DNA from: an uncultured Actinomycetes bacterium
GTDB lineage: Bacteria > Actinomycetota > Thermoleophilia > UBA2241
Direction: 5' to 3'
DNA length: 64,000 nt
Assembly: GCA_963767005.1 (NCBI GenBank)
Contig: CAVYCN010000006.1
Span: 1-64,000, forward strand
How positions within the stretch are numbered: the stretch's first letter is position 1; each line of letters starts with the position of its first letter. The position numbers were made by a program, and so were the translations under genes. Below are positions 975 to 63,098 of this stretch, piece by piece. The notes beneath the pieces are model-generated. The model was given only the letters and a program-made list of their open reading frames with translations, had not been told where the DNA came from and ran no database searches.

Positions 975-1409
975 CTACAGGTCTGCGGCGATGCTGCCCT
1001 GCATGAGGCGGGCGAGCAGCGCGGCGTTCGCGGCGATCTCGCGCTCGACCGCAGCGACGTCGGTCTCGACGCCGCCGACCGCCGCCTGGCGGTACCCGAG
1101 CGGCCCGCTCGCCGAGAAGTCGTCCTCGGCGATCAGCACGCCGAAGGTCCGCTCGACCGGCGGCTCGACGACGTCGTCGAGCGGGTTGTGCTCGCGCTCG
1201 GCGGCGTCGATCGCCAGCAGCTGGCGCGCCTGCTCGGCCGACGCCTCGGTCAGGCCGATGACGATCACCTCGCGCGGGTCGGCCGCGTTCAGCACGGTGA
1301 GCATGCGGTTGGACACGCCGAAGCCGGTGGTGTGATACCAGGCTCTGCGGAAGTCGTCGTAGGTCTTGCCCTCGCGCAGCCTGCGCCTGAGGATCGCCGC
1401 CGTGATCAC
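975..1409 (-). CDS. Hypothetical protein
   Basis: Frame with natural composition (RRLREGKTYDDFRRAWY); probable GTG start at 1409; TAG stop. Confidence 0.65.
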   Translation of the reverse strand: MITAAILRRRLREGKTYDDFRRAWYHTTGFGVSNRMLTVLNAADPREVIVIGLTEASAEQARQLLAIDAAEREHNPLDDVVEPPVERTFGVLIAEDDFSASGPLGYRQAAVGGVETDVAAVEREIAANAALLARLMQGSIAADL

Positions 1410-1649
1410 GCGATCACCCCTTTCGGCTCGCCGACCGCCGCCACTCACGGCCACGATACGGCGAAGCCCTCGGTTGCGGGGACAAGCCTACGGCTCACGA
1501 AGCAGTTGGTCGAGGAGCCATGCGCGAGGGTTCGCGCTGCGATGGGGCAGGTTTCGCTCGGCAGGCGACGGCGGCGCGGCGGTCAGGTACCGCTCACCTC
1601 GAAGCCCGGCAGCTCGGCGACCACGCCCTGACGCGCGCTCTGGCCATGT

Positions 1650-2402
1650 CTAGGGCACCGTGAAGATCGCCGCCCCGTTCGGGCCGTAGGCGGTGATGCT
1701 GAACTCGTTGCCCTGCAGCGTGTATTGGTACTGACCCGGCCCGGTGCCCGGCGTCATGGCCTTCCCCGTGTACGGGTCGGTCGGCCACTGCTCGACGTAC
1801 TGCGCGACGTCGCCGCCCGGCACGACCATGTAGGGCGGCGGGTAGGCGTCCTCATGCTTGACGGCCCACGTCTGCACGGCGATCTGGATGTCGTGCACCC
1901 CCGCCATGATCTGGTCGGCGCAGGCGCTCGCGTCGGGCGTCGGCGTCGGCGCCGACGACGGGATCGGCTTCAGGGTCTCGACCACGTCGGGCGCCCCGGC
2001 AGTCGAGCTGGGAGCGGTGAGCACGACGTGGCCGTGCTCCAGTGAGAGGACACCGGTCCCGCCGGTCCCGGAGCTCGCCGCGACGAGCTTGCCGTTCGCC
2101 AGCAGGAACCGGGCAGACTCAATCGCGACCGGGATCGTTACAAGGAACTCGGAGCCGCTTCGCGTGATGTCGACCTCGTACCACGCGTTCATCTGCGGGC
2201 CGAAGGCTTTCCAGCGCCCGACGAAGGCGCCGCCTGGTCCGGCGTCGTGAACGCTCTGACCGCCCGGTGCCGGCCGGCTCGCCGGTCTGGCGGCAAAGGC
2301 CATGGCGACGGCGGCGATCGCCAGGCAGACGACCACGAGGATCAGCAGGTCTCGTTGCGACAGCCGCACCGTGCCCCCAAGTCGCATGGTATGACGTCCC
2401 AC
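1650..2402 (-). CDS. Membrane-anchored/secreted protein with pilin or pseudopilin-like C-terminal domain
   Basis: N-terminal hydrophobic helix, Pro/Thr linker, C-terminal IQIAVQTW...YP...WPTDPYTG...YQY similar to GspG-like domains. Confidence 0.55.
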   Translation of the reverse strand: MGRHTMRLGGTVRLSQRDLLILVVVCLAIAAVAMAFAARPASRPAPGGQSVHDAGPGGAFVGRWKAFGPQMNAWYEVDITRSGSEFLVTIPVAIESARFLLANGKLVAASSGTGGTGVLSLEHGHVVLTAPSSTAGAPDVVETLKPIPSSAPTPTPDASACADQIMAGVHDIQIAVQTWAVKHEDAYPPPYMVVPGGDVAQYVEQWPTDPYTGKAMTPGTGPGQYQYTLQGNEFSITAYGPNGAAIFTVP

Positions 2403-3907: not shown

Positions 3908-4504
3908 CTACCTCGCCACGATCACTCTGGCCGGCCGCAGCAGGCGGCCGTGCAGCAGATACCCCGCCTCGAGCACGGCCACGATCGCACCCTCCGAGTA
4001 CTCGTCGGACTCCTGGGCGACGACCGCCTCGTGGACGTTGGGGTCGAACGGCAGGCCGGGGGCGGCCGGCACCTCATCGAGGCCGTGACCCTCGAGCACC
4101 GAGCGCAACTGCCCGGAGACGATCTCCACGCCCTTGATCAGTTGCCCTTCCTGGTGCTGCTCCGCCGCCTCGAGCGTGCGCGCCATGTTGTCGAGCACCG
4201 GCAGCAGCGACTCGATCACGCCCTCGCCGGCGCGCAGCACCAGGGCCTCGTTGTCGCGCTGCACGCGCTTGCGATAGTTCTCGAACTCGGCCTTGAGGCG
4301 CAGGAGCTGGTCGAGGTAGTCCGGGGTCGACCGGTCGGGCTGGACCGAGCAAGCGGGCTCAGCCGACCGGTCGAGCTCGACCTCTCGGACGGGGGGAGCG
4401 TCCGCGTCCTCGTCGCCTGCCTCGGCGGTGTCGTAACTGGCGAGCGCCTCCTCCAGGACCTGGCGCAACTCGCTCGTCGCCGCCCAGGGCTCGCACGAGG
4501 TCAT
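3908..4504 (-). CDS. grpE: Nucleotide exchange factor GrpE
   Basis: LRLKAEFENYRKR, LLPVLDN, FDPNVHEAV, GYLLHGRLLRPARVIVA. Confidence 0.9.
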   Translation of the reverse strand: MTSCEPWAATSELRQVLEEALASYDTAEAGDEDADAPPVREVELDRSAEPACSVQPDRSTPDYLDQLLRLKAEFENYRKRVQRDNEALVLRAGEGVIESLLPVLDNMARTLEAAEQHQEGQLIKGVEIVSGQLRSVLEGHGLDEVPAAPGLPFDPNVHEAVVAQESDEYSEGAIVAVLEAGYLLHGRLLRPARVIVAR

Positions 4505-4573: not shown

Positions 4574-5884
4574 TCATGTCTGGGAGAAGCGCGCGAACAC
4601 GGCGCGGGCCTGCTCGAAATCGGCGCGGGCCTCGGCGGTCCGGCCCAGGGTGGACAGCACCTTGGCCCGGCTCATGACGCAGCGGGCCGCCTCGACCTTC
4701 TGGTCGTGCTGCTCGTAGAGCGAGCGGGCCTCCTCGTAGGCGGACAGAGCCTCGGTGGAGCGGCCGAGGTTGCGCAGAGCGTCGGCGTTGCCCAGCTTGC
4801 AACGGGCCACTTCGAGGTCCTGGCTGAGACGCCGGTAGACGGCCTCGGCCTCCTCGAAGAGAGATGAGGCCTCGCCGAAACGCCCGAGACTGGCCAAGGT
4901 GCTCGCGCGCTGGACCGTGCAGCGGGCTTGCCCGCTATCGTGGCCGTGGCGCTCGTAGATCGCGCGCGCCTCTTCGTAGCCTGCCAGCGCGTCCTGATAA
5001 TGTCCCAACGCCGCGTGAACGACGGCGCGATTGGCCAGACAGGCAGCCGCCTCGGCCTCGCAGCCGCAACGCTCGAGCACCGCCTGGGCGGCGTCGTACC
5101 CGGCCATCGCTTCGGAGAGACGTCCAAGATTCGCCAGCACGTTGGCCCGGTTGGCCGTGCAGCGCGCGGCGTCGACCTCGCCACCGAGGCGCACCAGAGC
5201 CTCCTCCGCCTTCTGGTAGGCGGCGAGCGCGTCGTCGAAGCGACCCAGATTGGCCAGTGCGACGGCGCGGTTCATGACGCAGCGCGCCGCGTCGACCTCG
5301 CAACCAAGGCGGGCAAGAACGCCCTGGGCGGCGTCGTAGCCGGCCAGGGCCTCCGCGAAGCGGCCCGCGGCCGCCAGCACGTTGGCCCGGTCGGCCGCGC
5401 AGCGCGCCGCCTCGATCTCGGCGCCGGCGCGCAGGTAAAGTGCTTGCGCGTTCTCGTAGGCGCCGAGGGCGTCCGCGTAGCGGCCCGCGGCCGCCAGGCG
5501 GTGTGCCAGCTTCCGGGCCGCCGTCGCGCCGTGGGGGTCGCTGTGCGGCTGGGCGGGGCTGCCGTCCTGGGCCGCCGCAGGCTCGGTCGTCTGTGTGCGG
5601 CCGCCGGGGGTGCCTCTGCCGTCGCGGTGGGCGGCGGCGCGACTGCGCCGGCGAAACGCAAAGACCACGTGCCGGCGCTGCCCGTCACGATCGTCGGGGA
5701 CGCTCCTGAGCCTCTCACACTCACGTTCGGCGCTCAGTGGTCTGCAGTCGTCGACCATGGTCATTGTTCTGCTCCTTGCCACGACACTCTTGCTCTGTAT
5801 TTCGGCACCTCGCGGCAGGCGCTCAATGGGCATCGCACCCAGTCGCTCTAGGTACTGCGCCCCGACTTTGGGCGCAATCGTCAA
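4574..5884 (-). CDS. Tetratricopeptide-repeat protein (true start uncertain, probably downstream of 5884)
   Basis: About 7 repeats of ~40 aa (ARCxxNRAxxLxxLGRFxEALxxYxxA). Confidence 0.8.
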
Positions 5885-6322: not shown

Positions 6323-8392
6323 CTACTCGATCTTCGGCAACCGCCGCTCGGCGACCTCGGCGCTGATCTCGCTCACGAACTGCTCGACCGGTACCGAGCC
6401 GGTCTCCTCGCCGCGCGCCCTCACGGAGACGGCGCGGGCCTGCTCCTCGCGGTCGCCCACGACGAGCAGGTAGGGCACCTTCTGGAGCTGGCCGTCCCTG
6501 ATCCTCTTCCCCACGCTCTCGGAGCGGTCGTCGAGCTCGGCGCGCAGACCGGCGACGCGCAGCGCCTCCATGACGCCGGTGGCGTAGCCGGCGTGGCGAT
6601 CGCTCACCGGCAGCACCAGGGCCTGCACCGGCGCGAGCCAGGTCGGCAGGTTGCCGCCGTAGTGCTCGAGCAGGATGCCCATGAAGCGCTCGATCGAGCC
6701 CAGCATGGCGCGGTGGATCATGACCGGGCGGTGCTCCTCGTTGTCGGCGCCGGTATAGGTGATGTCGAGGGTCTCGGGCATGGCGAAGTCGACCTGGATG
6801 GTGCCGCACTGCCAGCTGCGGCCCATGACGTCGCGAATGTGAAAGTCAATCTTGGGGCCGTAGAAGGCGCCGTCGCCGGGGTTCAACTGGTAGGCCATCG
6901 GCACGACCATGCCGGCCGGGTCGCGCAGCGGCTCGCCGTCGGGCCCGCGCTCGGGCTCGGCTTCGAGCACGTGGCGCAGGGCGTCTTCGGCTGAGGCCCA
7001 CATCTCGTCGGTGCCGATCGAGCCGTCGGGCCGGGTCGAGAGCTCGATGTGCACGTCGGAAAAGCCGAAGTCGGCGTAGATGTGCAGCATGAAGCGCAGC
7101 ACGCCACGCACCTCGTCTTCGAGCTGCTCGGGGGTGCAGAAGATGTGGGCGTCGTCCTGGGTGAAGTAGCGCACGCGGAACAGACCGTGCAGCACGCCGC
7201 TCATCTCGTGGCGGTGCACCTGGCCGAGCTCGGCCCAGCGCATGGGCAGGTCGCGGTAGCTGCGCCGCCGGCTCTTGTAGACGAGCAGGCCGCCGGGGCA
7301 GTTCATGGGCTTCACGGCAAAGGGCGCGCCGTCGATCTCGGTGAAGTACATGTTGTCGCGGTAGTGGTCCCAGTGGCCCGAGCGCTCCCAGAGCTCGCGG
7401 CGCAGGATCTGCGGGGTGCGCAGCTCCTCGTAGCCGGCCTTCACGTGCTCCTCGCGCCAGTAGTCGATGATGGCGTTCCAGACGCGCATGCCCTTGGGGT
7501 GGAAGAAGGGGAATCCGGGACCCTCGTCGTGGAAGCTGAACAGGTCGAGGTCGCGGCCGATGCGGCGGTGGTCGCGCTGGCGCGCCATCTCCAAGGCCGC
7601 GAGGTGGGCGGCGAGCTCCTCCTTTTTGGCGAAGGCGGTGCCGTAGATGCGGGTGAGCTGGGCGTTCTTCTCGTCGCCGCGCCAGTAGGCGCCGGCCAGG
7701 CTGGTGAGCTTGAAGGTGCCCTTGCCGATGCGCCCGGTGCTGGGCAGGTGGGGCCCGCGGCAGAGATCGACGAACTCGCCCTGGGTGTAGACCGAGATGG
7801 TCGGCACCGGCTCGCCGGCCGCCTTGGCGGCCGCCACCAGATCCTGCACGAGCTCGACTTTGAAGGGCTGGTCGAGGCCGGTCCGCAGGCCCTGCTCGGA
7901 AGCGCCGACGTCGGCCGGGCCGAAGACGAGCATGGCCTCGTCGACCGGCAGCTCGTGGCGAGCCACCGGCAGGTTCTCGGCGACGACCTTGGCCATCTCC
8001 TCTTCGATGCGCGGAAAGTCGGCGTCGGAGACGGGCTGAGCGAACTGGAAGTCGTAGTAGAAGCCGTTCTCGATGGTCGGCCCGATCGAGTACCTGGTCT
8101 CGGGCCACAAGCGCATGACCGCCTGGGCCAGCACGTGCGAGCAGCTATGGCGCAGGATGTCGAGACCGTCCGGCGAGTCGAGGGTGATGATGGCGACCTG
8201 GTCGCCGTCGCGGAGTGGGTGGGTCAGGTCGACGAGGCGAGGGGCTTCTGAGTGCCCGTCGTGCGCCGCGACTGCGGCAGCTACCGCCGCCTTCGCCAGT
8301 CGCGGCCCGATCGCCTGCGCGGCGTCGAGCGCGGTTGCGCCGTCGGGGAGTTCGAGCGGGGAGCCGTCGGGCAGGGTGACGTGGAGGGGCAT
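6323..8392 (-). CDS. thrS: Threonine--tRNA ligase
   Basis: TGS domain, HSCSHVLAQAV, DLCRGPHL, RDHRRIG, KPMNCP, GAFYGPKID, WQCGTIQVDF, HRAMLGSIERF. Confidence 0.98.
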   Translation of the reverse strand: MPLHVTLPDGSPLELPDGATALDAAQAIGPRLAKAAVAAAVAAHDGHSEAPRLVDLTHPLRDGDQVAIITLDSPDGLDILRHSCSHVLAQAVMRLWPETRYSIGPTIENGFYYDFQFAQPVSDADFPRIEEEMAKVVAENLPVARHELPVDEAMLVFGPADVGASEQGLRTGLDQPFKVELVQDLVAAAKAAGEPVPTISVYTQGEFVDLCRGPHLPSTGRIGKGTFKLTSLAGAYWRGDEKNAQLTRIYGTAFAKKEELAAHLAALEMARQRDHRRIGRDLDLFSFHDEGPGFPFFHPKGMRVWNAIIDYWREEHVKAGYEELRTPQILRRELWERSGHWDHYRDNMYFTEIDGAPFAVKPMNCPGGLLVYKSRRRSYRDLPMRWAELGQVHRHEMSGVLHGLFRVRYFTQDDAHIFCTPEQLEDEVRGVLRFMLHIYADFGFSDVHIELSTRPDGSIGTDEMWASAEDALRHVLEAEPERGPDGEPLRDPAGMVVPMAYQLNPGDGAFYGPKIDFHIRDVMGRSWQCGTIQVDFAMPETLDITYTGADNEEHRPVMIHRAMLGSIERFMGILLEHYGGNLPTWLAPVQALVLPVSDRHAGYATGVMEALRVAGLRAELDDRSESVGKRIRDGQLQKVPYLLVVGDREEQARAVSVRARGEETGSVPVEQFVSEISAEVAERRLPKIE

Positions 8393-8526
8393 GCTGACAC
8401 CGGTCCTTTCGTGCCTCGCGCCCGCGCACGTTGCGGGGGCTGTTGACCGGGTGAGTGTAGCAGAAGGCGGTTACTCAGAAGGAGGACGCGAGACCCACAG
8501 GAATGTAGTATCCATTGTCAACCGCC

Positions 8527-9612
8527 ATGGTCTTCCAGCCCGACATCCGGCCCGGCAGCGAGCTCGACTCAAAGGACCTCAACAGCATCTTCAGAGGTCA
8601 ACAGCAGGGCGGCATGCGGTACTCCAAGGCCACGAACAGCCTGGTGTTGGTCACCGACCGGAAGAAGCTGTCCGGCACATCGATCTACGGCGACGAGTGG
8701 ATCGACAACGCCCTGCACTACCGCGGGACCGGTCAGCGCGGCGACCAGAGCCTCGAGTTCGCCGGCAACGCGAAGCTCATGCACGCACAGAGGGACGACA
8801 CGGGCGTGTTCCTCGTTGAGCGAACCAGGCACGCTCACTATCGATACCTGGGTCGAGTGGAGCTTGCTGGCGATCCGTACCGGCGCAATGAGCCGGACGC
8901 CGACGACAGGATGAGGCTCGTCTGGGTCTTCCCGCTTCGCTCCGTCGACGCCGAACCGCCGGTGCTTGAGGAGGCCGCTGCCACCAACGTCGAGGTTGCG
9001 CCAGCGCTCTCGTTGCTGCCGTCTGATGAGGCGGTAGCGGTCGAGGTTCTGGCACAGGAATCCGGCACCACGCACGAGTCGATTCAGCTCGCGCTCCTCC
9101 AAATGGGGGCGGGCCTTGGCCTCGACGTCTGGGTGGCCAAGAACGACCGGGGCAAGATCGTCGACGGCCAGCCCTTCGCGTCTTTGCCGCGCATGCGGGA
9201 CGCACTTCCTCACCAATTCGACCCCCAGGTCACGAAGATCATCGAGAACATCGATGTGATCTGGCTTCGCGGCAACGGCATTGAGGCTGCCTTCGAGATT
9301 GAGCACACAACGTCGATCTACTCGGGGCTGCTCAGAATGGCCGACCTGATTACGCTGCATCCCAACTTCTTCATCCGGCTCTACGTGGTAGCACCGGACA
9401 TTCGGGAGAAGAAGGTGCTGCAGGAGATTGCCAGGCCTACCTTCGAGGGACTTCCCCGCCCACTCCGAGAGATCTGCGGGTGCATCACGTACTCGCGTCT
9501 GCTTGTGGAGGCCGAGGCGGTCAAGAAGTATGGCAGCCAGCTCAAGCCTGGTTTTCTTCAGGACATCGCTCGCTTCTCTGAGTCACCGGAAGCGTCAGCG
9601 ACGATGGCCTAG
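8527..9612 (+). CDS. Putative modification-dependent restriction endonuclease (SRA-like N-domain plus PD-(D/E)xK-like C-domain)
   Basis: N-terminus GGMRYSKATNSLVLV...YGDEW...LHYRGTGQRGDQ...GN; C-terminus IDVIWL...AAFEIEHTTSIYSGLLRMADL; visibly lower GC than the flanks. Confidence 0.7.
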   Translation: MVFQPDIRPGSELDSKDLNSIFRGQQQGGMRYSKATNSLVLVTDRKKLSGTSIYGDEWIDNALHYRGTGQRGDQSLEFAGNAKLMHAQRDDTGVFLVERTRHAHYRYLGRVELAGDPYRRNEPDADDRMRLVWVFPLRSVDAEPPVLEEAAATNVEVAPALSLLPSDEAVAVEVLAQESGTTHESIQLALLQMGAGLGLDVWVAKNDRGKIVDGQPFASLPRMRDALPHQFDPQVTKIIENIDVIWLRGNGIEAAFEIEHTTSIYSGLLRMADLITLHPNFFIRLYVVAPDIREKKVLQEIARPTFEGLPRPLREICGCITYSRLLVEAEAVKKYGSQLKPGFLQDIARFSESPEASATMA

Positions 9613-10863: not shown

Positions 10864-12318
10864 GTGTCCGATACCACGACGCGCGCCCGGAGCGGCGCGA
10901 GCTGGCCCTACCGACGCGTCTCGGGCGACGAGTGCCAGAGACTCCACGAGGCGGCCGTCTCGATCCTGCAACGCACGGGGGTGCGACTCGAGCTGCCGCG
11001 GGCCGTCGCGCTACTGCGCGCCGCCGACTGCGCGGTCGACGCGGACGGCATCGTCCACATCCCGCCGGCGCTCGTGGAGTGGGCGCTCGAACGGGCGCCG
11101 CGCTCGTTTACGATCCACGGCCGCGACGGCGCCCCGGCGATGGTCCTCGACGGCACCCGCACCTACTACGGACCCGGCTCCGACTGCCTCTCCATCGTCG
11201 ACCACCGCAGCGGCGAGCGGCGGCGGCCCACCATGGCGGACGTCGGCGAGGGCGTCGGCCTGGCCGACGCCCTCGCCGACGTCGATTTCGTCATGTCGAT
11301 GTTCCTGCCCGCCGACGTCGACGACCGCATCGCCGACCGGCACCAGCTCCGCGCGATGCTGACCGGCACGCGCAAGCCGCTCGTCTTCGTGACCTACGAC
11401 GCCTCGGGCTGCCGCGACGCCGTCGCCATGGCCGAGGCGGTCGCCGGCGGCGCCGAGGCCCTCACGACCAGGCCCTTCCTCGCCTGCTACGTGAACTGCG
11501 CGAGCGGCCTGCTGCACAACGCCGACGCGCTCGAGAAGCTCATCCTGCTGGCCGAGCGCGGGCTGCCGGTGCTCTACGTCCCCGGTTCGCAGGCCGGCGT
11601 GACCGGCCCGGCGACGCCCGCCGGGGCGGTTGCCGTGTTCTGGGCCGGCGTGCTCGCCGGCCTCGTGATCGCCCAGCTCGTGCGCGAGGGCACGCCCTTC
11701 GTGGCCAAGGGCTGGGGCGGTGGCGGCCTCGACATGAAGACGATGGTCTACGGCTACGCCGGCCCCGACCAGCGCGCGACGGCGACCGCCCTGGCGCGTC
11801 ACGTCGGCCTGCCGACCTTCTCGCTGGCCGGCGCGAGCGACGCCAAGACCGTCGACCAGCAGGCCGCCGCCGAGGCGGCCCTCACGCTCGCCGTCGAGAC
11901 GCTCGCCGGTCCCGACCTCGTGCACGACCTCGGCTACCTCGAGTCCGGGCTCACGGGCTCGCTCGCCCAGCTTGCGATCTGCGACGAGATGGTCGGCTGG
12001 CTCCGTCACTTGAGAGCCCCGCTCGACACCGGCGATGAGGCCCTCGCGCTCGACGTCGTCGACGAGGTCGGCCCCGACGGCCAGTTCCTCGCCACGCGCC
12101 ACACGGCGCGCCACTACCGCGAGCTGTACTACCCGACGCTCTTCGAGCGCGCCACGCGCGAGGCCTGGGTCACGGCGGGCTCGTCGACCTTGGCCGAGCG
12201 CGCCGGGCGGTGGGTCGAGGAGCTTCTCGCCGCGCGGCCCTCACCGGAGCCGCTCGCCTGTGACGACCGGCTCCGCGCGATCGTGGCCGCGGCCGAGCGA
12301 GGCGTGGCGACTGCCTAG
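10864..12318 (+). CDS. Trimethylamine methyltransferase superfamily protein, non-Pyl (MtgB-like)
   Basis: MttB fold throughout. At the Pyl-equivalent site it reads LPTFSLAGASDAK with no in-frame TAG; VHDLGYLESG, EVGPDGQFL. Confidence 0.9.
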   Translation: MSDTTTRARSGASWPYRRVSGDECQRLHEAAVSILQRTGVRLELPRAVALLRAADCAVDADGIVHIPPALVEWALERAPRSFTIHGRDGAPAMVLDGTRTYYGPGSDCLSIVDHRSGERRRPTMADVGEGVGLADALADVDFVMSMFLPADVDDRIADRHQLRAMLTGTRKPLVFVTYDASGCRDAVAMAEAVAGGAEALTTRPFLACYVNCASGLLHNADALEKLILLAERGLPVLYVPGSQAGVTGPATPAGAVAVFWAGVLAGLVIAQLVREGTPFVAKGWGGGGLDMKTMVYGYAGPDQRATATALARHVGLPTFSLAGASDAKTVDQQAAAEAALTLAVETLAGPDLVHDLGYLESGLTGSLAQLAICDEMVGWLRHLRAPLDTGDEALALDVVDEVGPDGQFLATRHTARHYRELYYPTLFERATREAWVTAGSSTLAERAGRWVEELLAARPSPEPLACDDRLRAIVAAAERGVATA

Positions 12319-14744: not shown

Positions 14745-14765
14745 GGGCGCATCGTACCCCATGGC

Positions 14766-14812
14766 CGGCGGGGCGCGGCGGCGAGCTTGCCAGCTCGCCG
14801 CCCCGCCCCGCC
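14766..14812. repeat. REP-like palindromic element, copy 1
   Basis: GGCGGCGAGCTTGCCAGCTCGCCGCCCCGCCCC. Confidence 0.7.
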
Positions 14813-38384: not shown

Positions 38385-39779
38385 CTAGCCGGCGAACGAC
38401 TCGTCGATCGAGCGGGCGGCGCGGCGGCCCGCGCCCATCGCGCTGATCACGGTGGCCGCCCCGGTCACGACGTCGCCGCCGGCCCATACCCCGGGCCGCG
38501 ACGTGGCGCCGGTCTCTTCGCTTGCCACGATGTTGCCCTTGCGCCCCACCTCGAGGCCCGGCGTGGTCATGGGGATCAGCGGGTTGGGGCTGTTGCCGAT
38601 CGCGCAGACCGACGCGTCCATCTCCATGATGAACTCCGAGCCGGGCACCTCGACCGGCCGGCGCCGGCCCGACTCGTCGGGCTCGCCGAGCTCCATGCGA
38701 CGGCACTCGATGCTCGCCAGGCGCCCGGCCTCGTCGCCGATGAGCTGCACGGGCAGCGTGAGAAAGTCGAAGATCACGCCCTCTTCCTCGGCGTTCTCGG
38801 CCTCTTCGGCGCGCGCCGGCAGCTCGGCGCGCGAGCGCCGGTAGACGATGTGCACCTCGTCGGCGCCCAGGCGCAGCGCGGTGCGCGCCGAGTCCATCGC
38901 CACGTTGCCCCCGCCGAACACGGCGACCCGCGCCGGCCGCTTGAGCGGTGTGTCGTAGGCCGGAAAGCGAAAGCCGCGCATGAGGTTGCAGCGCGTGAGG
39001 TACTCGTTGGCCGAAAAGACGCCGTTCAGGTTCTCGCCGGGGATGTCGAGGAACCACGGCAGCCCGGCGCCGGCGCCCACGAAGACGGCGTCGAAGGTCT
39101 CGAGCAGGCGTTCGATCGTGCGCGTCTTGCCGACCACGAAGTCGAGCCGCAGCTCGACCCCGAGGCCGCGCACGTAGTCGACCTCGCGGCGCACGATCGC
39201 CTTGGGCAGGCGGAACTCGGGGATGCCGTAGGTGAGCACGCCGCCGGCCTCGTGCAGCGCCTCGTACATCGTCACCGCGTGACCGCGCAAGGCGAGGTCG
39301 GCGGCCACCGTGATGCCGGCCGGCCCCGAGCCCACGATCGCGACGTGGCGGCCGGTCGGCGGCGGGAGCGGCGCAGCCGCTCCCGCCGCCTCGCCGGCCG
39401 CCGCCTCCCAGTCGGCCACGAAGCGCTCGAGGCGGCCGATCGCCACCGGGTCGCCCTTCTTGCCGAGGATGCAGCGCGCTTCGCACTGCTCCTCCTGCGG
39501 GCAGACGCGCCCGCAGACCGCCGGCAGCGCGTTGGTCTGCTTGACGGCGCGCACGGCGGCGGCGAAGTCGCCCTCGGCCACGAGGCCCACGAAGCGCGGG
39601 ATGTCGACGCTCACCGGACAGCCGTCGACGCAGCCCGGCTTCTTGCACGACAGGCAGCGCGCCGCCTCTTCGCGGGCAAGCTGCTCGGTGTAGCCCAGGG
39701 CGACCTCGTCGAAGTTGCGCACGCGCTCGGCCGGCGCCTGCTTGGGCATGGGCCGCCGCACCAGGTCGACCTTGGCCAC
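38385..39779 (-). CDS. nfnB: NfnB/SudA (GltD-like) transhydrogenase large subunit
   Basis: RCLSC...CVDGCP, CGRVCPQEEQCE, GSGPAG, YGIPEFRL, GGGNVAMD, GGDVVTGAATVISAM. Confidence 0.9.
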   Translation of the reverse strand: MAKVDLVRRPMPKQAPAERVRNFDEVALGYTEQLAREEAARCLSCKKPGCVDGCPVSVDIPRFVGLVAEGDFAAAVRAVKQTNALPAVCGRVCPQEEQCEARCILGKKGDPVAIGRLERFVADWEAAAGEAAGAAAPLPPPTGRHVAIVGSGPAGITVAADLALRGHAVTMYEALHEAGGVLTYGIPEFRLPKAIVRREVDYVRGLGVELRLDFVVGKTRTIERLLETFDAVFVGAGAGLPWFLDIPGENLNGVFSANEYLTRCNLMRGFRFPAYDTPLKRPARVAVFGGGNVAMDSARTALRLGADEVHIVYRRSRAELPARAEEAENAEEEGVIFDFLTLPVQLIGDEAGRLASIECRRMELGEPDESGRRRPVEVPGSEFIMEMDASVCAIGNSPNPLIPMTTPGLEVGRKGNIVASEETGATSRPGVWAGGDVVTGAATVISAMGAGRRAARSIDESFAG

Positions 39780-52865: not shown

Positions 52866-54341
52866 TCAGGGTCGCACGGCGGCCAGCTCGCCTTCGGCCT
52901 CGACGATGATCCGCCCGAGCTCGGCCGCGACCGGCGCCGGCAGCGGTGTCGGCACGTGCGTCTCGAGCAGCCGGACCGCCTCGCGCCGCGCGCGTTCGTA
53001 GACCGTCGTCGCACCGTCGGCGGCCCACTCCTCGCGGACCCGGCGATCGATCAACTGCGAGCGCGACTGGCCGCGCATGCCGCGGTAGGTGTCGTCGTGC
53101 GACAGAAAGTCGCGGAACGGCCCGACCTCGGCGATCACATCGACCGAGAGCGTCTCGTCTGAGACCGGGATCCCGGGCACGCAGAACTTGACCATGCGCG
53201 CGAACTCGGCGTCCATGACGAGCTGTGCGTAGTCGATCGTGACGCCCGATTCCAACATCCCCAGCCCGTAGATCAGGTTGGCCCCTGCCAACGCCGGCAG
53301 CAGGCTGGTGAGGGTCTTCTCGTGACCGGATTGGGCGTCGGCCACCTTGGCGTCGCCCTACGCACCGGCGACCCAGCTCGGCAGCAGGTAGAAGCGCGCC
53401 AGGCAGGCCACCCCGGCGCCGATCATGCCGCACTCGGGGCTGCCCACCGAGGCGCTCGCGAAGCGCAGGTCCATGGCCGTCGTCGAGGAGCCGTAGATGA
53501 CGGGTGCGCCGCGCGTCGTGAGCTGCGCGAGCGTGATGCCGGCCAGCACCTCGGCGTTGTGGGTGACGAGCGTGCCGGCCAGGCTGACCGGCGACGAGCC
53601 GCCGGCCATGGCCATCGACAGCACGTTGACCGGCACGCCGGCGCGCGCCCCCTCGATGATGATGTGACAGGCGTCGGCGACCAGCTTGAGCGGGCTCACC
53701 GGGCAGGTCAGGAACGAAAGCAGCGGGCGCCGGCGTAGCGCTTCGCGGCCGCCGGCGATGGCCGCCGCCATGTCGATCATCGCGCGGGCGCAGAAGCCCG
53801 TGAGCGGACCGATCGTCGCGTGCTTCGTGGTGTTCGCGAAGATCGCCTCGGCGTTGTGCAGCGGCGCGGTGTCGGGCGGCACGTCGTGGGCGCCCAGGGG
53901 CCGCTCGACGACGTCGATCTCGGGCAGCGCGTCGATGATCCTCGTGCAGTCGGCGACGTCGCACTTACGCGACTCGTGCAGCTCGCCGGTCCGCGGGTCG
54001 ACGACCTGGATGCCCTCGCCGAAGTTGGTGAAGCCGACGCGGCCGTCCTCGAGCACGACGTCGCGGGCCGGGTCGCGTCCGCAGAGCACGACCGAGGAAG
54101 GCGCCGAGCGGACCGCGTCTTCGACCAGGTGCGCCGGCAGGCGCACCACGCTCGAGTCGCGGTCGACCTCGGCGCCGGCCGCCGCGAAGATGTCGCGGGC
54201 TTCGCCGTCTTCGACGAACACGCCGGTGCGCGCCAGCACCTCGAGTGTCGCCGAGTGGATCTCGTGCAGCTCGTCGTCGGTGAAGACCTCGAGCCGAAAG
54301 CCGCCGCTCGCTCGCGCGCCGGCCCGCGGGTTGCGCCTCAT
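52866..54341 (-). CDS. mttB: Pyrrolysine-containing trimethylamine:corrinoid methyltransferase (491 aa, Pyl at codon 328)
   Basis: ORFs 53358-54341 and 52866-53345 are one frame joined across TAG 53358-53360: LPSWVAGA-TAG-GDAKVADAQSGHEKT. Also GFTNFGEG, CPVSPL, SMAMAGGSSP, GSSTTAMDL, GSPE, IYGLGMLE. Confidence 0.93.
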
Positions 54342-54396: not shown

Positions 54397-55803
54397 CTAG
54401 CGCACGCGGCTCGTCGGGGCCGTGCGCTCGCGGAACCGCTCGACGCAGTTGATCGGCAGGTCGAGCACCCGGGCGATGTTCACCTTGGCCTCGATCATGT
54501 TCGCCTGCGCCGGCTGGCTGATCGCGTAGCTGTGGATGCGGCCGAAGCCGTGCTCGTTGCGCACGTCGGTCATGACGACCGGGTCGGACAGGTCGAACGA
54601 CGTCACGCCGAGCCTGTCGGCCACGTACTGCTTGGCCTGCGCGAGACGCATGCCGCGGGTCATCTGCGCGCGAGCGACCAGATCTCCGGCCGCCCGCATG
54701 CCGCCCATGCCCGCCGCCTGCGCATGCGCGTTGTGCATGCCGTGCGGATCGCCCGAGCCCACCTACAAGCCGTCGAGGCGCAGCAGGTCGACGAACGACT
54801 TGGCGGCCCTGCAGACGGCGTCGCCCGGCGGATGCACGAACATCGGCACTGCGCCGACGCCCATGCCGGCGTTCATGTGCACGGGGATCGTGGCGACCGC
54901 CATGCAGGGCTTGACGATGGCGATCGCGCGCGCCACGTTCCAGGCGCAGCTCTTACCGGTGTTCACGTTGACGACCGGGCCGAACATGGTGGCGCCGGCC
55001 TGCTGGGCCAGCAGGAGCTGGTCTTTGGGCCACAGGCCGGCCAGGCGCACGCCCTCGTAGGTGAGCTCGCCGTGCATGCCGAGCACGAACTCGCCCGCCA
55101 TGCCGAGCTGCACGCCGAGGTCGGGGTACTTCTGACGGATGATCGCGGTGGCGCGCAGCGCGGCCAGGAACTCGGGGTCGCCCGAGGCGCCGGTCGTGTC
55201 CCAGTCGATCGCGTCGGCGCCGGCCTCGTACTGCGAATCGGCGAGGTGCACCATGTCGAGGACAGCCATCTCGACCGCCTCTTCTTCGGCCGCCCGCGCC
55301 TCGGCGATCTTGCCCAGCGGCAGCAGCTCGTTCCAGTTGTCGCAGGGGCCGTCCGGTTTGGAGTACAGCCCGAGGTTGGGCATCACGCCGTACTGCAGGG
55401 GCGCCACCGTGGCGAGCAGCGCGTCGTGCATGCACTGCGCCTCGTAGGCGAGGATCGTGCGCACGACCTTGAGCGAGTAGTCGCCGACGCACAGCTCGAG
55501 CAGGTCGGCGCCCATCCACTGCTCGTAGGCCTGCAGATCCTGCAGGCGCGTGGCGTGGGTCTTCATGCCGGTGCCGTCGCAGGAGAGCACGACCTCGTCG
55601 CCCACGTCGACGCCGGTGAAGCGCGCCGGCGAGGCGTAGATGTCGAGCAGGTGGTCGATCTCGTCGGCCGCCAGCGGCGCCACCTTGGCGCGTTTGGCCG
55701 CCGCCTCGGACCCCGCCTCGAGGTCGGCCCTGATCTCGTCGCGGGTCATCCGCACGAACATGCCGTCGGCCATACGCGTCGGCACCCTGGGCTCGCCGCT
55801 CAC
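54397..55803 (-). CDS. mtbB: Pyrrolysine-containing dimethylamine:corrinoid methyltransferase (468 aa, Pyl at codon 347)
   Basis: GTG at 55803 with GGAGG RBS. ORFs 54763-55848 and 54397-54762 are contiguous across TAG 54763-54765: RLDGL-TAG-VGSGDP. Also TRMADG, MPNLGLY..PDGP, DTTGASGD, GEFVLGMHG, GMGVG, RAAGDLVAR. Confidence 0.93.
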
Positions 55804-55946: not shown

Positions 55947-56480
55947 TCAAGGGACATCCGCGCCGCGCGCCGGCTCGAGGCGCACGATGGCCTCGCCCTC
56001 CCACTCGAAGTTCACCTTGTCGACCCGCAGGATGTGCCAGGTCTCGGTGTCGGCGATGCCCTCGATCTTCTCGAGCTCCTCGTTCAGAAACCGGTAGAGG
56101 CCCTCGTTGTCGGGCAGGTGGGCCTCGATCAGGATGTCGAAGGAGCCTGTCGTGTAGCCCACGTATGAGACCGCCTCCATGGCCGCCAGGGCGGCCCCCA
56201 CGCCCTTGGCAAAGCCGCGGTGCACACGGATGCCGACCATGGCATCGACGGGGTAGCCGATCGCGGCCGGGTTCACGCGGGCCATGGGCAGGATCGCCCC
56301 CTGGCTGATGAGGCGCTCCACCCGGTTGCGCGCGGTCGGCTCGGACACGCCCACGGCGCGCGCGATGCTCGCATACGAACGCCGCGAGTTGGCGCGCAGC
56401 AGGCGCACGATGTGGCGGTCGAGCTCGTCGAGCTCGACGACCCCGAACGGCGCCTCGCCCGCCCTGATCACGCCGCCCAC
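55947..56480 (-). CDS. Lrp/AsnC family regulator
   Basis: LDELDRHIVRLLRANSRRSYASIARAVGVSEPTARNRV; TTGSFD. Confidence 0.92.
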   Translation of the reverse strand: MGGVIRAGEAPFGVVELDELDRHIVRLLRANSRRSYASIARAVGVSEPTARNRVERLISQGAILPMARVNPAAIGYPVDAMVGIRVHRGFAKGVGAALAAMEAVSYVGYTTGSFDILIEAHLPDNEGLYRFLNEELEKIEGIADTETWHILRVDKVNFEWEGEAIVRLEPARGADVP

Positions 56481-56810: not shown

Positions 56811-58304
56811 GTGAAGGCGAGCACGACCTGGCTCAGCGACGCGGAGAAGAACGCCATCGCCGACCACGCCCTCGAGGTGCTCGCCACCACCGGCATGCGC
56901 TTCGCCGGCTCGCGGGTCCTGCCCCTGCTCGCCGAGCAGGGCGCCGCGGTCGACCGTGCGCGCGGCCTTGCTCGCTTGCCGCGCGAGCTCGTCGAGCGGT
57001 CGCTCGCCGCCTGCCCGCGCTCGTTCGTCATGGGCGGCGCCACGCCGGCCGACGACGTCGCGCTCGGCACCGGCGAGGCCTTTCACTTCACGCCCAGCGG
57101 CTGCGTGGCCAAGACGCTCGACCGGCAGAGCGGCCGGCGCCGCCCGAGCACGCTCCAGGACCTGCGCGACTGCACCGGCCTCATGGACGAGCTGCCCGAG
57201 ATGGACGTCATGTCGACCCAGGTCAGCGCGACCGACGTCGGCCTTGAGCGCCGCGAGCTGCTCGAGTACTTCACCATGCTCACCGAGACCACCGAGCACG
57301 TCTCGTTCATCGACTGCCCGCACGAGGTCGACGCCGTGCTGCGCCTGTGCGACGTGCTCGGCGAGGCCGCCGGCTTTGCCGAGCGGCCGCGCTTCTCCAC
57401 GGTGTGCACCATCGCCTCGCCGCTGCAGGTCGACGGCGGGGCGCTCGACGTGCACCTCGCCCTGGCGCCGCGCGGCGTGCCGGTCGAGGTCTACTCCATG
57501 ACGATCGCCGGCGCGACCTCGCCGGTCACGCTGGCCGGCACCGTCGTCCAGGCGGTGGCCGAGTTCCTCGGCGTGGCCACCGCCTTTCAGGTGGCGGCCC
57601 CCGGCGCGCGCCTCGTGTTCTGCTTCGGCTCCGGCGTGCTCGACATGGTGCGCACGACCTTCTCGCTCGGCTGCGTCGAGAGCGGCCTCATGGCAGCCAT
57701 GGCCACCGAGGTCGGCCACCACCTCGGCGTGCCCACCCTCAACCCCGCGCTGTCGACCGACGGCAAGCACCCCGGCGTGCAGGCCGGCTACGAGAAGGCG
57801 CTCAAGGCGGCCACCGTCTGCGCCGCCAACCCCGACCTCGTGTCGGGCTGGGGCCTGATCGACTCGCACAACACGATGTACCTGCCGCAGTCGGTCATCG
57901 ACAACGAGATCGCCGCCATGGTGCGGCGCCTGTGCGCGCCGGTCGACGTGAGCGAGGCCAGCCTCGCCGGCGACTCGATCGCCCGCGTCGGGCCCGGCGG
58001 CGGCTTTCTGCGCGAGAAGGACACGGCGCGGCGCATCCGCGCCGGCGAGCACTTCCTGCCGACGGTCTCGAACCGGCTCTCCTACGACCAGTGGCTCGCC
58101 GAAGGTCGTACCGAGGTCGACGCCGCCGCCGCGCGAGTCGACGAGCTGCTCGCGCGGCACCACGCGCGCGGCCCGCTGCTGCCCGCCGACCAGCTCGACG
58201 AGATCGCCGCCATCTGCCGGGCGGACCCCGGCAGCGTCCTCTGGGCGCGGCGCGAGGAGCGCCGCGACCGCCCGCGTCCCACGCCAGGAACGGAGGCACC
58301 GTGA
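56811..58304 (+). CDS. Trimethylamine methyltransferase superfamily protein, non-Pyl
   Basis: ASPLQ, AGATSPVTLAGT, VPTLNPALSTDGK..QAGYEK (no TAG), VGPGGGFL. Confidence 0.9.
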   Translation: MKASTTWLSDAEKNAIADHALEVLATTGMRFAGSRVLPLLAEQGAAVDRARGLARLPRELVERSLAACPRSFVMGGATPADDVALGTGEAFHFTPSGCVAKTLDRQSGRRRPSTLQDLRDCTGLMDELPEMDVMSTQVSATDVGLERRELLEYFTMLTETTEHVSFIDCPHEVDAVLRLCDVLGEAAGFAERPRFSTVCTIASPLQVDGGALDVHLALAPRGVPVEVYSMTIAGATSPVTLAGTVVQAVAEFLGVATAFQVAAPGARLVFCFGSGVLDMVRTTFSLGCVESGLMAAMATEVGHHLGVPTLNPALSTDGKHPGVQAGYEKALKAATVCAANPDLVSGWGLIDSHNTMYLPQSVIDNEIAAMVRRLCAPVDVSEASLAGDSIARVGPGGGFLREKDTARRIRAGEHFLPTVSNRLSYDQWLAEGRTEVDAAAARVDELLARHHARGPLLPADQLDEIAAICRADPGSVLWARREERRDRPRPTPGTEAP

Positions 58305-60181: not shown

Positions 60182-61621
60182 ATGGCAGGCACCAAGTACC
60201 TGGTCGGCGTCGACGGGGGCTCGCAGAGCTCCAAGGTCGTCGTCTTCGACATCGGCGGAACAGTGGTCTGCGAGGGCCGTCGCGGGCTGCAGCCCATGAG
60301 CCGGCCGCGCAACGGCATCGTCGAGCACCCCGACGACGACCTGTGGGACTCGATCTGTGCCGCCAGCCGCGAGGCCATGGCGGCCTTCCCCGGCGATCCG
60401 GCCGACATCGTCGGCATCGGCCTCTGCACGATCCGTTGCGAGCGTGCCTTCCTGAAAGCCGACGGCACGCTCGCTGCGCCGGGCATGAGCTGGATGGACG
60501 AGCGCGCCTACCAGCCCTGGACCTATCCGGTGCCGGGCACCGCCTGGGTGACGACCTCGTCGGGCTACATCACGCACCGCTTCACGGGGCGCTTCCGCGA
60601 CACGGCCGCCAACAACATCGAGATCCAGTGGCCGATCGACAGCGACACCTGGCAGTGGAGCGACGACCCGGCCGTGCTCGACGCCTGGCAGATCCCGCGC
60701 GAGATGCTGGTGGAGCTGCAGCTCCCCGGCGAGGTGGCCGGCTACGTCACCCCCGCGGCGGCCGCCGCGAGCGGCCTGCCGGCCGGCGTACCGGTCGTGC
60801 AGACGGCCAACGACAAGGCGGTCGAGGCGCTCGGCGCGGGCTCGCTCGACGACCGCACCGCACTGGTGTCGCTCGGCACCTACATCGCGGCCATGCTGCA
60901 CGGCAGCGAGAACCGCAAGACGCCGACCGAGTTCTGGACGAACTTCGCCTGCGTGCCGCACCGCTACCTCTACGAGAGCCACGGCATCCGCCGCGGCATG
61001 TGGACGCTCTCGTGGTTCCTCGACCTGCTCGGCGACGAGCTCGCCCGGGCGGCCGTCGCCGAGGGCGTGTCGCGCGAGGAGTACCTGGAGCGTGAGGCGC
61101 GCGCGGTGCCGCCCGGCAGCGACGGCCTGATGACCGTGCTCGACTGGCTCGCGCCCGCGGACCACCCCTTCCGCAAGGGCGTCATGCTGGGCTTCGACGC
61201 GCGCCACACGCGGGGGCACGTCTACCGTTCCATCCTCGAGGCCATCGCCGTGACCATGAAGAACCGGGTCGACGCGATGTGCGCCGAGCTCGGCGTCACG
61301 CTCGAGTCGATCGTCGTGTCGGGCGGCGGCTCGAGCAGCCCGCTCTTCATGCAGATCTTCGCCGACGTGTTCGGCATCCCGGCGGCGCGCACGGTCGGCG
61401 CCTCGGGCGCGAGCCTCGGGGCGGCCGTTTGCGCGGCCGTGGCGACCGGTGTCCACCCCGACTTCGGCACGGCCGCCGCCGCGATGAGCGGCGCGCGCGA
61501 GTCGTTCGCGCCGCGCGCCGACGCCACGGCCGTCTACCGCGCCCTGAACGACGCCGTCTACCGCGACATCCGGACGGCCACCGACCCGCTGCTCGAGCGG
61601 TCGTACCCCATCTTCCACTGA
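60182..61621 (+). CDS. FGGY-family sugar kinase (YgcE-like)
   Basis: GVDGGSQSSK, SWMDER, NDKAVE, SLGT, SGGGSSS. Confidence 0.9.
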   Translation: MAGTKYLVGVDGGSQSSKVVVFDIGGTVVCEGRRGLQPMSRPRNGIVEHPDDDLWDSICAASREAMAAFPGDPADIVGIGLCTIRCERAFLKADGTLAAPGMSWMDERAYQPWTYPVPGTAWVTTSSGYITHRFTGRFRDTAANNIEIQWPIDSDTWQWSDDPAVLDAWQIPREMLVELQLPGEVAGYVTPAAAAASGLPAGVPVVQTANDKAVEALGAGSLDDRTALVSLGTYIAAMLHGSENRKTPTEFWTNFACVPHRYLYESHGIRRGMWTLSWFLDLLGDELARAAVAEGVSREEYLEREARAVPPGSDGLMTVLDWLAPADHPFRKGVMLGFDARHTRGHVYRSILEAIAVTMKNRVDAMCAELGVTLESIVVSGGGSSSPLFMQIFADVFGIPAARTVGASGASLGAAVCAAVATGVHPDFGTAAAAMSGARESFAPRADATAVYRALNDAVYRDIRTATDPLLERSYPIFH

Positions 61622-61655
61622 CCAGATCCAGCCCCGAGCCACGGAAGGATCCATC

Positions 61656-63098
61656 ATGCAGCTGAGCCGAGAAGCGATCGTCGAGGGCCTGCAGCGCATC
61701 GTCGGCGCCTCCGACGTGGTCACCGACGCGGCCGTCCTCGCCGAGAGCAGCGTCGACAACTTCCGTAAGCTCGAGAACATCTTCGGCGTGCACACCATGC
61801 CACAGCCAGCGGCCGTGGTCATGGTGCGCAGCACGGAGCAGGTCGCCGCCGTGCTGGCCTTCGCCGACGAGCACGGCGTGAACGTCGTGCCGCGCACCGG
61901 CCACACGGCCACCGAGGGCGGCCTCGAGACACCCGTGCCCGACTCGATCGTGCTCGACGGCTCGCCGATGAACCGCATCATCGACATCGACACCTACAAC
62001 ATGCAGGCGACCTGCCAGTGCGGCGTGCCGCTGCAGGCCCTCGAGGACCGCGCCCGCGAGCTCGGCCTGACGACCGGCCACTCGCCCCAGTCCAAGCCGG
62101 TCGCCCACCTCGGCGGCCTCACGGCGACGCGCAGCATCGGCCAGTTCTCGACCCTCTACGGCGGCATCGAGGACATGGTCGTGGGCGTCGAGGCGGTGTT
62201 CCCCGGCGGCCGCGTGGCGCGCATCAAGAACGTGCCGCGACGCGCGGCCGGCCCCGACATCCGCCACATCGTGATCGGCAACGAGGGCGCCCTCTGCTTC
62301 ATCACCGAGGTGACGGTCAAGCTCTTCCCCTACTTCCCGCAGAACAACAGCTTCCTGGGGTACACGCATCGCGGCATGAAGGTCGGCTTCGAGGCGCTGC
62401 GCGAGGTCATGGTCGGCGGCTACAAGCCGTCGGTCGCGCGCATCTACGACCCCGGCGACGCCGACCTGCACTTCTCGCACTTCATCGCGCCCGGCGACTG
62501 CGTGCTGCTGTTCATGGCCGAGGGACCGGCCGGCATCGCGCAGGCCACGGTCGAGGGCATCGAGGCGATCGTCGCCCGTCACCCCGAGTGTCACCAGGTC
62601 GACGGCCGCTACATCGAGACCTGGTTCAACGACCTCTGCTGGGGGCCCGACAAGATCGCCGCCGAGGACGAGCGCATCAGGCAGACACGCAACGTCAACC
62701 GCACGACCGAGATCTCGGCCAACTGGAGCGCGATCAACGACATCTACGAGGCCGCCATCGGCCGCATCACGAACGAGATCCCCGACCTGACGAGGCTCGG
62801 CGGCCACTCGTCGCACAGCTACATCAACGGCACCAACATGTACTTCAACTACTTCTACAACCTGGTCGACTGTGGCCCCGAGGACGAGCCCACCAGGTAC
62901 TACCTGCCGATCATCAGGATCATCTGCGAGGAGACGCTGCGCTGCGGCGGCTCGATCGTGCATCACCACGGCATCGGCAAGGCACGCGTGCCGTGGGTGA
63001 AAGACGAGTACGGCTCGTCGTACTTCATGCTCGAGACGCTCAAGCGGGGGTTCGACCCGCACGGCATCATGAACAAGGGCACGATCCTGCCGGCATAG
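61656..63098 (+). CDS. FAD-linked oxidoreductase, alkyl-DHAP synthase-like (YgcU-like)
   Basis: GHSPQS, GGL.ATRSIGQFST.YG.IEDM, GNEG, HHHGIG, DPHGIMN. Confidence 0.9.
   Translation: MQLSREAIVEGLQRIVGASDVVTDAAVLAESSVDNFRKLENIFGVHTMPQPAAVVMVRSTEQVAAVLAFADEHGVNVVPRTGHTATEGGLETPVPDSIVLDGSPMNRIIDIDTYNMQATCQCGVPLQALEDRARELGLTTGHSPQSKPVAHLGGLTATRSIGQFSTLYGGIEDMVVGVEAVFPGGRVARIKNVPRRAAGPDIRHIVIGNEGALCFITEVTVKLFPYFPQNNSFLGYTHRGMKVGFEALREVMVGGYKPSVARIYDPGDADLHFSHFIAPGDCVLLFMAEGPAGIAQATVEGIEAIVARHPECHQVDGRYIETWFNDLCWGPDKIAAEDERIRQTRNVNRTTEISANWSAINDIYEAAIGRITNEIPDLTRLGGHSSHSYINGTNMYFNYFYNLVDCGPEDEPTRYYLPIIRIICEETLRCGGSIVHHHGIGKARVPWVKDEYGSSYFMLETLKRGFDPHGIMNKGTILPA

Follow-up and report, generated by a model that had tools for sequence, protein, structure and literature searches.

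A conserved hairpin behind pyrrolysine UAG codons in a Thermoleophilia genome that also uses UAG as a common stop

Bacteria that make pyrrolysine (Pyl) are known to use UAG in two ways, as the Pyl codon in methylamine methyltransferase genes and as a stop codon elsewhere. We analyzed a 64,000-nucleotide (nt) stretch of DNA (the window) from an uncultured bacterium of the class Thermoleophilia. The window is contig C6:1-64000 of the source genome (G000; 3.44 Mb, 71% GC), and two of its genes, mttB and mtbB, contain an in-frame (sense) TAG. Behind both of these TAGs we found a short hairpin that also follows the other sense TAGs of the genome and is rare behind terminal TAGs. The double use of UAG is known; this candidate discriminating hairpin is new.

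Frequent TAG stops have been described in Pyl bacteria (PMC9723677, PMC1976440), among them Desulfitobacterium hafniense, Acetohalobium arabaticum, the Olavius delta-1 symbiont and marine Deltaproteobacteria. Dual code expansion has been reported in Deltaproteobacteria (PMC8318568). Pyl-mttB and mtbB are expressed in peat Actinobacteriota (PMC10805028), and PylRS has been reported in two Actinobacteria (PMC9630628). The number of Pyl genes in G000, 16, compares with a bacterial record of 8 in 2007 (PMC1976440). Like known Pyl bacteria, G000 has a split PylSn/PylSc, Pyl only in methylamine methyltransferases, TAG otherwise as a stop, and selenocysteine (Sec). It differs from them in that its pyl genes are dispersed among housekeeping genes and in its candidate cis signal.

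The pyrrolysine insertion sequence (PYLIS, RF01982) of archaeal mtmB was reportedly the subject of work by Theobald-Dietrich in 2005 and Longstaff in 2007. It too is a stem-loop 3' of the Pyl UAG, and it likely improves suppression (PMC12626013). However, it lies directly after the UAG, is confined to mtmB and is not required, whereas the hairpin described here lies 72-114 nt downstream in three unrelated enzyme families. The mtmB gene of a relative from another family of the class (G044) matches RF01982 (79.6 bits; threshold 70). The bacterial selenocysteine insertion sequence (SECIS) is likewise a hairpin within a coding region, placed 3' of a stop codon that has two uses, and its small apical loop contains a G (PMC1976440). 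SECIS directly follows UGA and depends on SelB; the Pyl hairpin is distant (+72, +78 or +114), and G000 has one selB. A SECIS candidate in selD of G000 has a different loop, at about +20.

For bacteria, Zhang and Gladyshev (2007) predicted a cis element without finding a structure in common (PMC1976440). Have et al. (2013) gave consensus structures for mtmB and mtbB, saw no sign of one in mttB, and found none that was shared (PMC3639795); the available text of that paper does not report a shared loop, rare-codon selection, covariation or a contrast between sense and stop UAGs. In the window, mtbB scores above the gathering cut-off of Rfam model PYLIS_2 (RF02509; 57.9 bits, cut-off 36) and mttB above that of PYLIS_3 (RF02510; 71.7 bits, cut-off 38), as is expected of any homologue because each model spans a 100-nt window of coding sequence. 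A distal hairpin over the same codons of mtbB is already part of the PYLIS_2 consensus structure; that of PYLIS_3 is without the mttB hairpin. A literature search based on listings and selected passages gave no report of an A-G-loop element common to the families, and the figures and supplements of Have et al. and Kivenson et al. may bear on priority. How Pyl UAGs are discriminated from stop UAGs has been stated as an open question (PMC1976440, PMC12626013). Kivenson et al. state that there is no validated mechanism for a dual-message TAG (bioRxiv 2024.09.30.615893), and a 2025 PNAS paper describes a targeted mechanism for Pyl UAG as not known (PMC12626013).

A hairpin behind the sense UAG codons

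A sequence-only reading of the window had proposed that two of its genes use TAG as sense. These are mttB and mtbB, and their read-through proteins exceed the cut-offs of TIGR02369 and TIGR02368. We called genes in G000 with a self-trained caller (2,859 genes, of which 1,806 end in TGA, 929 in TAG including 16 sense TAGs, and 124 in TAA). Within 3.4 Mb, the genome holds 41 MttB-family, 8 MtbB and 4 MtmB matches, and most genomes of the same bacterial family (below, the family) carry several Pyl paralogues. A sense TAG occupies the Pyl position in 7/41, 8/8 and 1/4 of these matches, respectively (16 genes). A TAG at the Pyl position of an enzyme family aligns with stops in homologues.

The element shared by these genes is a stem with a four-base A-G-(A/G)-N loop, located at +72 (mttB), +78 (mtbB) or +114 (mtmB) after the sense TAG. 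We assembled 95 Pyl genes, drawn from G000 and from 63 loci of the family, and scanned codon columns along whole genes in representatives with less than 85% identity (28 mttB, 25 mtbB). The most extreme rare-codon columns were +24 and +23 in mttB and +26 and -1 in mtbB. Column +24 of mttB was GCA in 28/28 representatives (z -11.6; genome usage 2.6%), and column +26 of mtbB was GGA in 25/25 (z -12.6; genome usage 3.3%). Elsewhere in these genes, GGA and GCA were used at 3.9% and 3.0%. The A that opens the loop in both families was fixed in 198/198 mttB and mtbB genes, the loop being AGAY in 123/123 mtbB and AGGN in 75/75 mttB; in mtmB, the third family, the loop A was preserved across Ala GCA, Leu CTA and Val GTA codons. 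This constraint, which points to single synonymous bases, is visible because of the high GC content and the many paralogues. The mtmB gene of G000 has the loop A at +114 on 6 pairs. That of G044, checked after the idea had formed, closes an AGGU loop at +114 with a stem of 7 pairs. The remaining two mtmB genes have an imperfect stem and a three-base loop at +117, respectively. Weaker rare-codon columns that the hairpin does not explain were seen at +6, +11, +33 and +42 in mttB and at +5 and +39 in mtbB.

Judged by codon usage, selection also acts on the codon that precedes the sense TAG, in favor of TTG/TTA or GCG. In mtbB this codon was TTG or TTA in 24/25 representatives (z -12.7) and in 119/123 genes, with a combined genome usage of 2.3%; among 75 mttB genes it was GCG in 49 and TTG/TTA in 21. 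Before terminal TAGs, Leu codons were at normal usage (2 TTG of 68). We found no structural explanation for the -1 codon. Long-range pairing of the mttB UAG with +86..+91 was rejected, as no counterpart was seen in mtbB and the TTG is unexplained by it.

The stem of the hairpin covaries. In mtbB, 98.4% of 322 alignment cells were paired and 22 were changed on both sides, a result matched by 0/500 shuffles and well above slid controls, and RNAalifold recovered the hairpin unaided. We built trees without the hairpin region from 123 mtbB and 75 mttB genes, excluding genes with too short a flank. In the mtbB tree, both sides changed independently 14 times at one synonymous pair and 6 times at another. 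Each of these pairs links the third positions of two different codons, so that the covariation is not accounted for by the amino acids. The mttB tree gave 5 independent both-side changes at one pair, with Asn changed to Ser or Gly; 94.9% of 297 cells were paired in 33 mttB sequences, 3 of them changed on both sides. Substitutions in the stems tolerated G-U and rarely gave C-A, as for sense-strand RNA, a bias that disfavors a DNA palindrome. These patterns make it very probable that the hairpin is a real, selected RNA structure.

We found that the hairpin distinguishes the two kinds of TAG. Under a narrow rule (loop at +66..+84 after the TAG, at least 5 pairs), it was present behind 15/16 sense TAGs, 5/913 TAG stops, 15/1,806 TGA and 1/124 TAA ends of G000. 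Under a wide rule (+60..+120, set only after mtmB had been seen), it followed 16/16 sense TAGs, 15/913 TAG stops and 97/6,126 random coding anchors. None of the 19 stop TAGs of the window had it. It was also absent from 27/27 non-Pyl mttB paralogues (drawn from 34 non-TAG matches after removal of fragments and a few more) and from 3/3 non-Pyl mtmB paralogues. Two close mttB paralogues that have lost the TAG, with Val or Trp instead, both lack the hairpin and have returned to common codons; one of the two keeps the identical peptide. Among genes fetched after the rule was set, the hairpin was present in 22/22 mttB and 64/73 mtbB, and in 14/17 divergent mttB; those that missed the 5-pair rule retain the loop A. 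At the level of sequence, the hairpin separates sense from stop UAG and goes with the TAG rather than with the enzyme family. Searches of viral contigs, plasmids and metagenomes gave no Pyl genes of other phyla; the metagenome hits were close relatives, and a phylum sample gave 1 of 400 besides G000.

Several further sites were considered and rejected. Non-coding sequence flanks the 5 terminal TAGs that have a hairpin at +66..+84. Within selB, a hairpin resembling that of mtbB is ascribed to chance, as 29 other selB genes do not conserve it there. Coding-score screens for further sense TAGs returned mostly adjacent in-frame genes. A TAG in pylSc of a relative (G021) sits at the C-terminal end, and the TGA of a supposed Sec-coded MttB on C10 precedes the gene. 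Screening 3,009 junctions by homology against a small reference set returned the 16 methyltransferase sites and one Ser-aligned TAG. The latter (G000:C13:18131, plus strand) lies in frame in an ABC substrate-binding gene, corresponds to Ser in homologues and has no hairpin. It may be a recent nonsense change, an assembly error or a neutral Pyl.

UAG as a stop codon and the pyl genes

The sequence-only reading had listed 19 genes of the window, about one third, as ending in TAG. Each of these coordinates is indeed a TAG triplet that closes an open reading frame (ORF) on the strand assigned to it, and the names given (thrS, grpE, a GltA/NfnB-type gene and a non-Pyl mttB) hold by profile search. 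TAG ends about 19 of 59 genes; our own caller gave 18 TAG, 35 TGA and 5 TAA ends plus the 2 sense TAGs, and left the gene ending at 9612 uncalled. Genome-wide, 913 of 2,843 gene ends (32%) are TAG stops, and the share across 42 windows of 64 kb ranges from 0.16 to 0.49 (median 0.31). A depletion of the Methanosarcina type, with TAG at about 5% of stops or less, is not seen.

The one-third share is correct for the window but is not a signal of Pyl, because relatives that lack Pyl have an equal share. We counted homologue-confirmed genes only, in samples of 100-400 kb per genome; this method replaced self-trained calling on the relatives' samples, which had a coverage of 0.58-0.83. TAG ends made up 22-32% in Pyl-lacking relatives (G027, 51/167; G020, 45/167; G042, 9/41; G048, 26/82) and 18-33% in Pyl-bearing relatives (G024, 39/126; G033, 18/100; G031, 19/57; G011, 75/249). 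The controls G020 and G027 (98% complete) had no PylSc, Pyl-mttB or mtbB matches. The TAG share is a lineage background, unchanged by the gain of Pyl. One Pyl-lacking relative, G027 (L013-L028; 66% GC), has TAA at 49/167 ends, compared with 0-7% in its kin.

Comparison with orthologues indicates that the terminal TAGs are real stops. In genetic code 34 (Kivenson et al., bioRxiv 2024.09.30.615893), Pyl machinery is accompanied by in-frame TAG as it is here, but all TAG is described as Pyl. In G000, terminal TAGs fall where orthologues end in TAA/TGA: 87/104 lie within 5 residues of such an end (157/209 in a TGA control). The reading frame is not maintained behind them, with a frameshifting indel within 60 nt in 20 of 25 alignable flanks of TAG ends shared with G011. 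Conserved extensions, which would speak for read-through at all TAGs, were not found behind terminal TAGs. Nor did we find backup stops in the genome-wide distances of G000: the median distance to the next TAA/TGA is 95 codons after TAG (68 after TGA), and 135/913 TAG stops are in frame with the next gene. General read-through would probably be costly as a result. This makes it very improbable that UAG is constitutively ambiguous in the manner of Methanosarcina, with every UAG partly read, extended products degraded, and the hairpin and -1 codon, like the archaeal mtmB PYLIS, fine-tuning the yield of strongly expressed genes. The published methanogen model requires no element (PMC12626013), and some Pyl genes here are without a perfect hairpin, but such methanogens mostly keep TAG rare. 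In G000, TAG is not only abundant but commonest among the quarter of genes with the highest coding score (0.36 vs 0.28), and it is undepleted relative to Pyl-lacking kin.

The machinery for Pyl is encoded on contig C3 of G000. A tRNA-Pyl with a CUA anticodon lies at C3:242986-243058 (ARAGORN), and copies in 5 family loci are 89-100% identical. PylSc (TIGR02367, 297.8 bits; cut-off 178.2), PylSn (TIGR03912, 122.2 bits; cut-off 51.2), PylB (428 bits; cut-off 348) and PylD (195 bits; cut-off 150) all exceed their cut-offs. PylC was assigned by its place between PylB and PylD, an ATP-grasp match, and 45% identity to the gene in the same place in G044. Release factor 1 (RF1) of G000 has the PxT (PVT) and GGQ motifs. 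PylSc exceeds its cut-off in 32/36 other family genomes and in 1/24 genomes from other families of the class. With this machinery, the sequences support the dual meaning of UAG that had been read from the window, a stop at gene ends and the Pyl position in methyltransferases.

The sequence-only reading had allowed that the code expansion is conditional. In such a scheme, with Acetohalobium arabaticum as the precedent among Pyl bacteria (PMC9723677), pyl would be on only with methylamines, all UAGs would be leaky, and the hairpin would be regulatory and not a recoding signal. The gap of 372 nt upstream of pylB in G000 could hold a regulated promoter, and an Lrp/AsnC regulator stands beside 18/144 methyltransferase loci. 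Pyl genes themselves end in TAG at a lower rate than the genome as a whole (32/194; in G000, 4/16), as if a terminal TAG carried some risk while Pyl is available. However, pylSc, pylSn and pylBCD-pylT lie apart in G000 and do not form one co-regulated operon, which argues mildly against conditional expression as the sole control. Because pylSc overlaps or closely trails the gene of a cell-wall amidase in almost every locus of the family (it overlaps in G000), and because pylBCD lies 19 nt behind a leuB-like/DUF3467 run in G024 and G031, co-transcription with housekeeping genes is suggested. The hairpin, moreover, follows the TAG and not the enzyme family. We consider this scheme improbable. 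Near the pyl genes we found no riboswitch at Rfam cut-offs and no sigma-70-like sites. RNA run X1 gave contigs of relatives only, which have no bearing on expression.

Some of the recoding genes end in TAG themselves: pylSc, pylSn and pylC (L001:6049-6912, 10093-10434 and 13943-15241), and also selA and selB (G000:C4:373021-376409). The TAG end is found in 9/14 family loci for pylSc and in 6/8 for pylSn. The TAG of pylC is in frame with pylD 18 nt downstream, so that read-through would fuse PylC and PylD, a possible feedback. A second pylD-like gene (G000:C4 near 553536), apart from the pyl cluster, is the best match of the PylD of several relatives. In G044, a compact pyl island (L227; G044:C12:36000-55999) carries a divergent tRNA-Pyl (73% identical); TAG closes its mttB and both of its mtbB genes, and 4/4 of its Pyl genes have the hairpin. 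Sec is also encoded in G000 (C4:372074 region; C7:106937), with tRNA-Sec, selA, selB, and in-frame TGA in selD and a thioredoxin-like gene. A SECIS survey gave two candidates only.

Features of the window

Coordinates are collected in Table 1. The mtbB gene uses UAG both ways, since it contains a sense TAG and also ends in TAG. The ORF at 8515-9612 (365 aa) has no NCBIfam match at 1e-8 and is uncalled by the codon model; it is possibly acquired DNA. Near-duplicate gene sets occur across contigs of G000 (window/C9/C17 and C13/C5), for example window 4574-5668 and C17:2778-3872. They are consistent with the 4.9% contamination figure or with duplication.

Table 1. Pyl genes, hairpins, regulator and TAG-ending genes in the 64,000-nt window
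Feature	Position	Strand	Remarks
Pyl-mttB, trimethylamine methyltransferase	52866..54341	-	Sense TAG inside, ends in TGA; TIGR02369 722.8 bits, cut-off 525
mttB sense TAG, Pyl position	53358..53360	-	Preceding Ala codon GCG at 53363-53361
mttB hairpin	53274..53296	-	+62..+84; 9 pairs, one bulged C; AGGG loop 53286-53283
Pyl-mtbB, dimethylamine methyltransferase	54397..55803	-	TIGR02368 406.6 bits, cut-off 369.1; TAG as sense and as stop
mtbB sense TAG, Pyl position	54763..54765	-	Preceding rare Leu codon TTG at 54768-54766
mtbB hairpin	54675..54692	-	+71..+88; 7 conserved pairs; AGAT loop 54685-54682
mtbB terminal TAG	54397..54399	-	Beyond the end of the family profile; no hairpin behind; one of the 19 TAG ends
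Lrp/AsnC regulator	55947..56480	-	Upstream of mtbB-mttB
thrS	6323..8392	-	TAG end; TIGR00418 over cut-off; next TAA/TGA 87 codons; no hairpin
grpE	3908..4504	-	TAG end; GrpE profiles just below cut-off; no hairpin
GltA/NfnB-type NADPH flavoprotein	38385..39779	-	TAG end; TIGR01316 over cut-off; no hairpin
Non-Pyl mttB	10864..12318	+	TAG end; TIGR02369 311 bits (cut-off 525); default codons, homologous place without hairpin
Second non-Pyl mttB	56811..58304	+	TGA end; homologous place without hairpin
Other TAG ends, ordinary stops	975, 1650, 9612, 13864, 16004, 19880, 29864, 33310, 34857, 36779, 47269, 50699, 60170, 63098		Next TAA/TGA 8-246 codons; no hairpin

Possible action of the hairpin

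The Pyl machinery, the two classes of TAG, and the conservation and covariation of the hairpin and its link to the sense TAG are established as features of the sequences. From them we infer that Pyl is inserted in vivo and that the hairpin folds and acts on decoding. With modest confidence, we favor a model in which UAG is a stop at about 913 gene ends and Pyl in 16 genes, and in which the hairpin and the -1 codon raise read-through at the sense sites. UAGs without the hairpin would terminate by default, and the hairpin and the preferred -1 codon would act together at sense UAGs; regulation of Pyl supply may act on top of this signal. The context-dependent option raised by the earlier reading of the window thereby gains sequence evidence. 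A ribosome at UAG covers about 12-15 nt downstream. Because the hairpin lies beyond this stretch, at a distance that varies by family, the likeliest arrangement would be a protein that binds the hairpin and loops back to the decoding site. The stand-alone tRNA-binding PylSn is a speculative candidate, being the sole obvious RNA-binding protein that travels with the element. We suggest tentatively, and with less confidence than we place in the model above, that in Thermoleophilia the hairpin is a true bacterial PYLIS, encoded in synonymous positions and adapted independently to three unrelated enzyme families, and protein-bound (possibly by PylSn), which makes its own UAG, and not the roughly 900 stops, Pyl.

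The hairpin might instead act on the fate of the mRNA and not on decoding. It could shield the message from Rho or nucleases at a waiting ribosome, pause RNA polymerase, or sense failed read-through and close the operon, while the UAG itself is settled by competition between Pyl-tRNA and RF1, aided by the -1 codon. A variable distance of 72-114 nt suits RNA ahead of a paused ribosome better than contact with the decoding site, and UAG is reported as a major pause site in M. acetivorans (PMC13663744). Loss of the hairpin with loss of the TAG is predicted by this alternative as well, and we found no dedicated elongation factor. However, it leaves 913 TAG stops, including those of thrS, selA, selB, pylSc and pylSn, exposed to the same Pyl-tRNA with no backup stops, and blocking Rho should need no fixed loop sequence. 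We regard an action on mRNA fate as rather unlikely, and on balance we read the hairpin as more probably a read-through signal.

Several observations weigh against a read-through signal. We found no SelB paralogue in G000, which has one selB only, and no conserved unknown neighbor at 144 methyltransferase loci. A co-travelling factor was also not found in the G044 island, which contains pyl genes, methyltransferases, corrinoid proteins, a transporter and a small ORF resembling a stress protein. None of the 9 translation GTPase hits in G000 is EF-Tu-sized, and tuf is probably missing from the assembly; since there is no EF-Tu-sized hit at all, a missing tuf-like gene could yet be the factor. 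To our knowledge, a signal at a distance of 60-110 nt is without bacterial precedent. According to published accounts, Pyl needs no insertion element in archaea or E. coli (PMC12626013, PMC13663744, bioRxiv 2024.09.30.615893). The hairpin itself is not uniform. It is imperfect in 2/4 mtmB, and the 5-pair rule is missed by 6/33 mttB and 2/45 mtbB of relatives, by 9/73 later mtbB and by 3/17 divergent mttB. The rule was derived from the same genes, its wider window was set after mtmB, and all sequences are related and come from one class. Covariation in mttB is thin (3 cells in 33 sequences), RNAalifold recovers only 3 mttB pairs, the mttB hairpin taken alone shows no unusual stability (z -0.89), and 5/7 mtbB pairs follow from conserved residues. 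Two other candidate factors were rejected: a radical SAM gene beside pylSn was not found in Pyl-bearing G024, G031 and G033 with the query used, and RF1 shows only scattered differences between Pyl-bearing and Pyl-lacking kin.

If the element acts on mRNA fate, it would still be an undescribed element tied to UAG recoding. If it drives read-through, bacterial Pyl would follow the logic of selenocysteine, at a distance and without a SelB-like factor, and the view of Pyl and Sec as dissimilar strategies would be revised. The hairpin would then also serve as a portable tag by which chosen amber sites are suppressed while native UAG stops are left alone.

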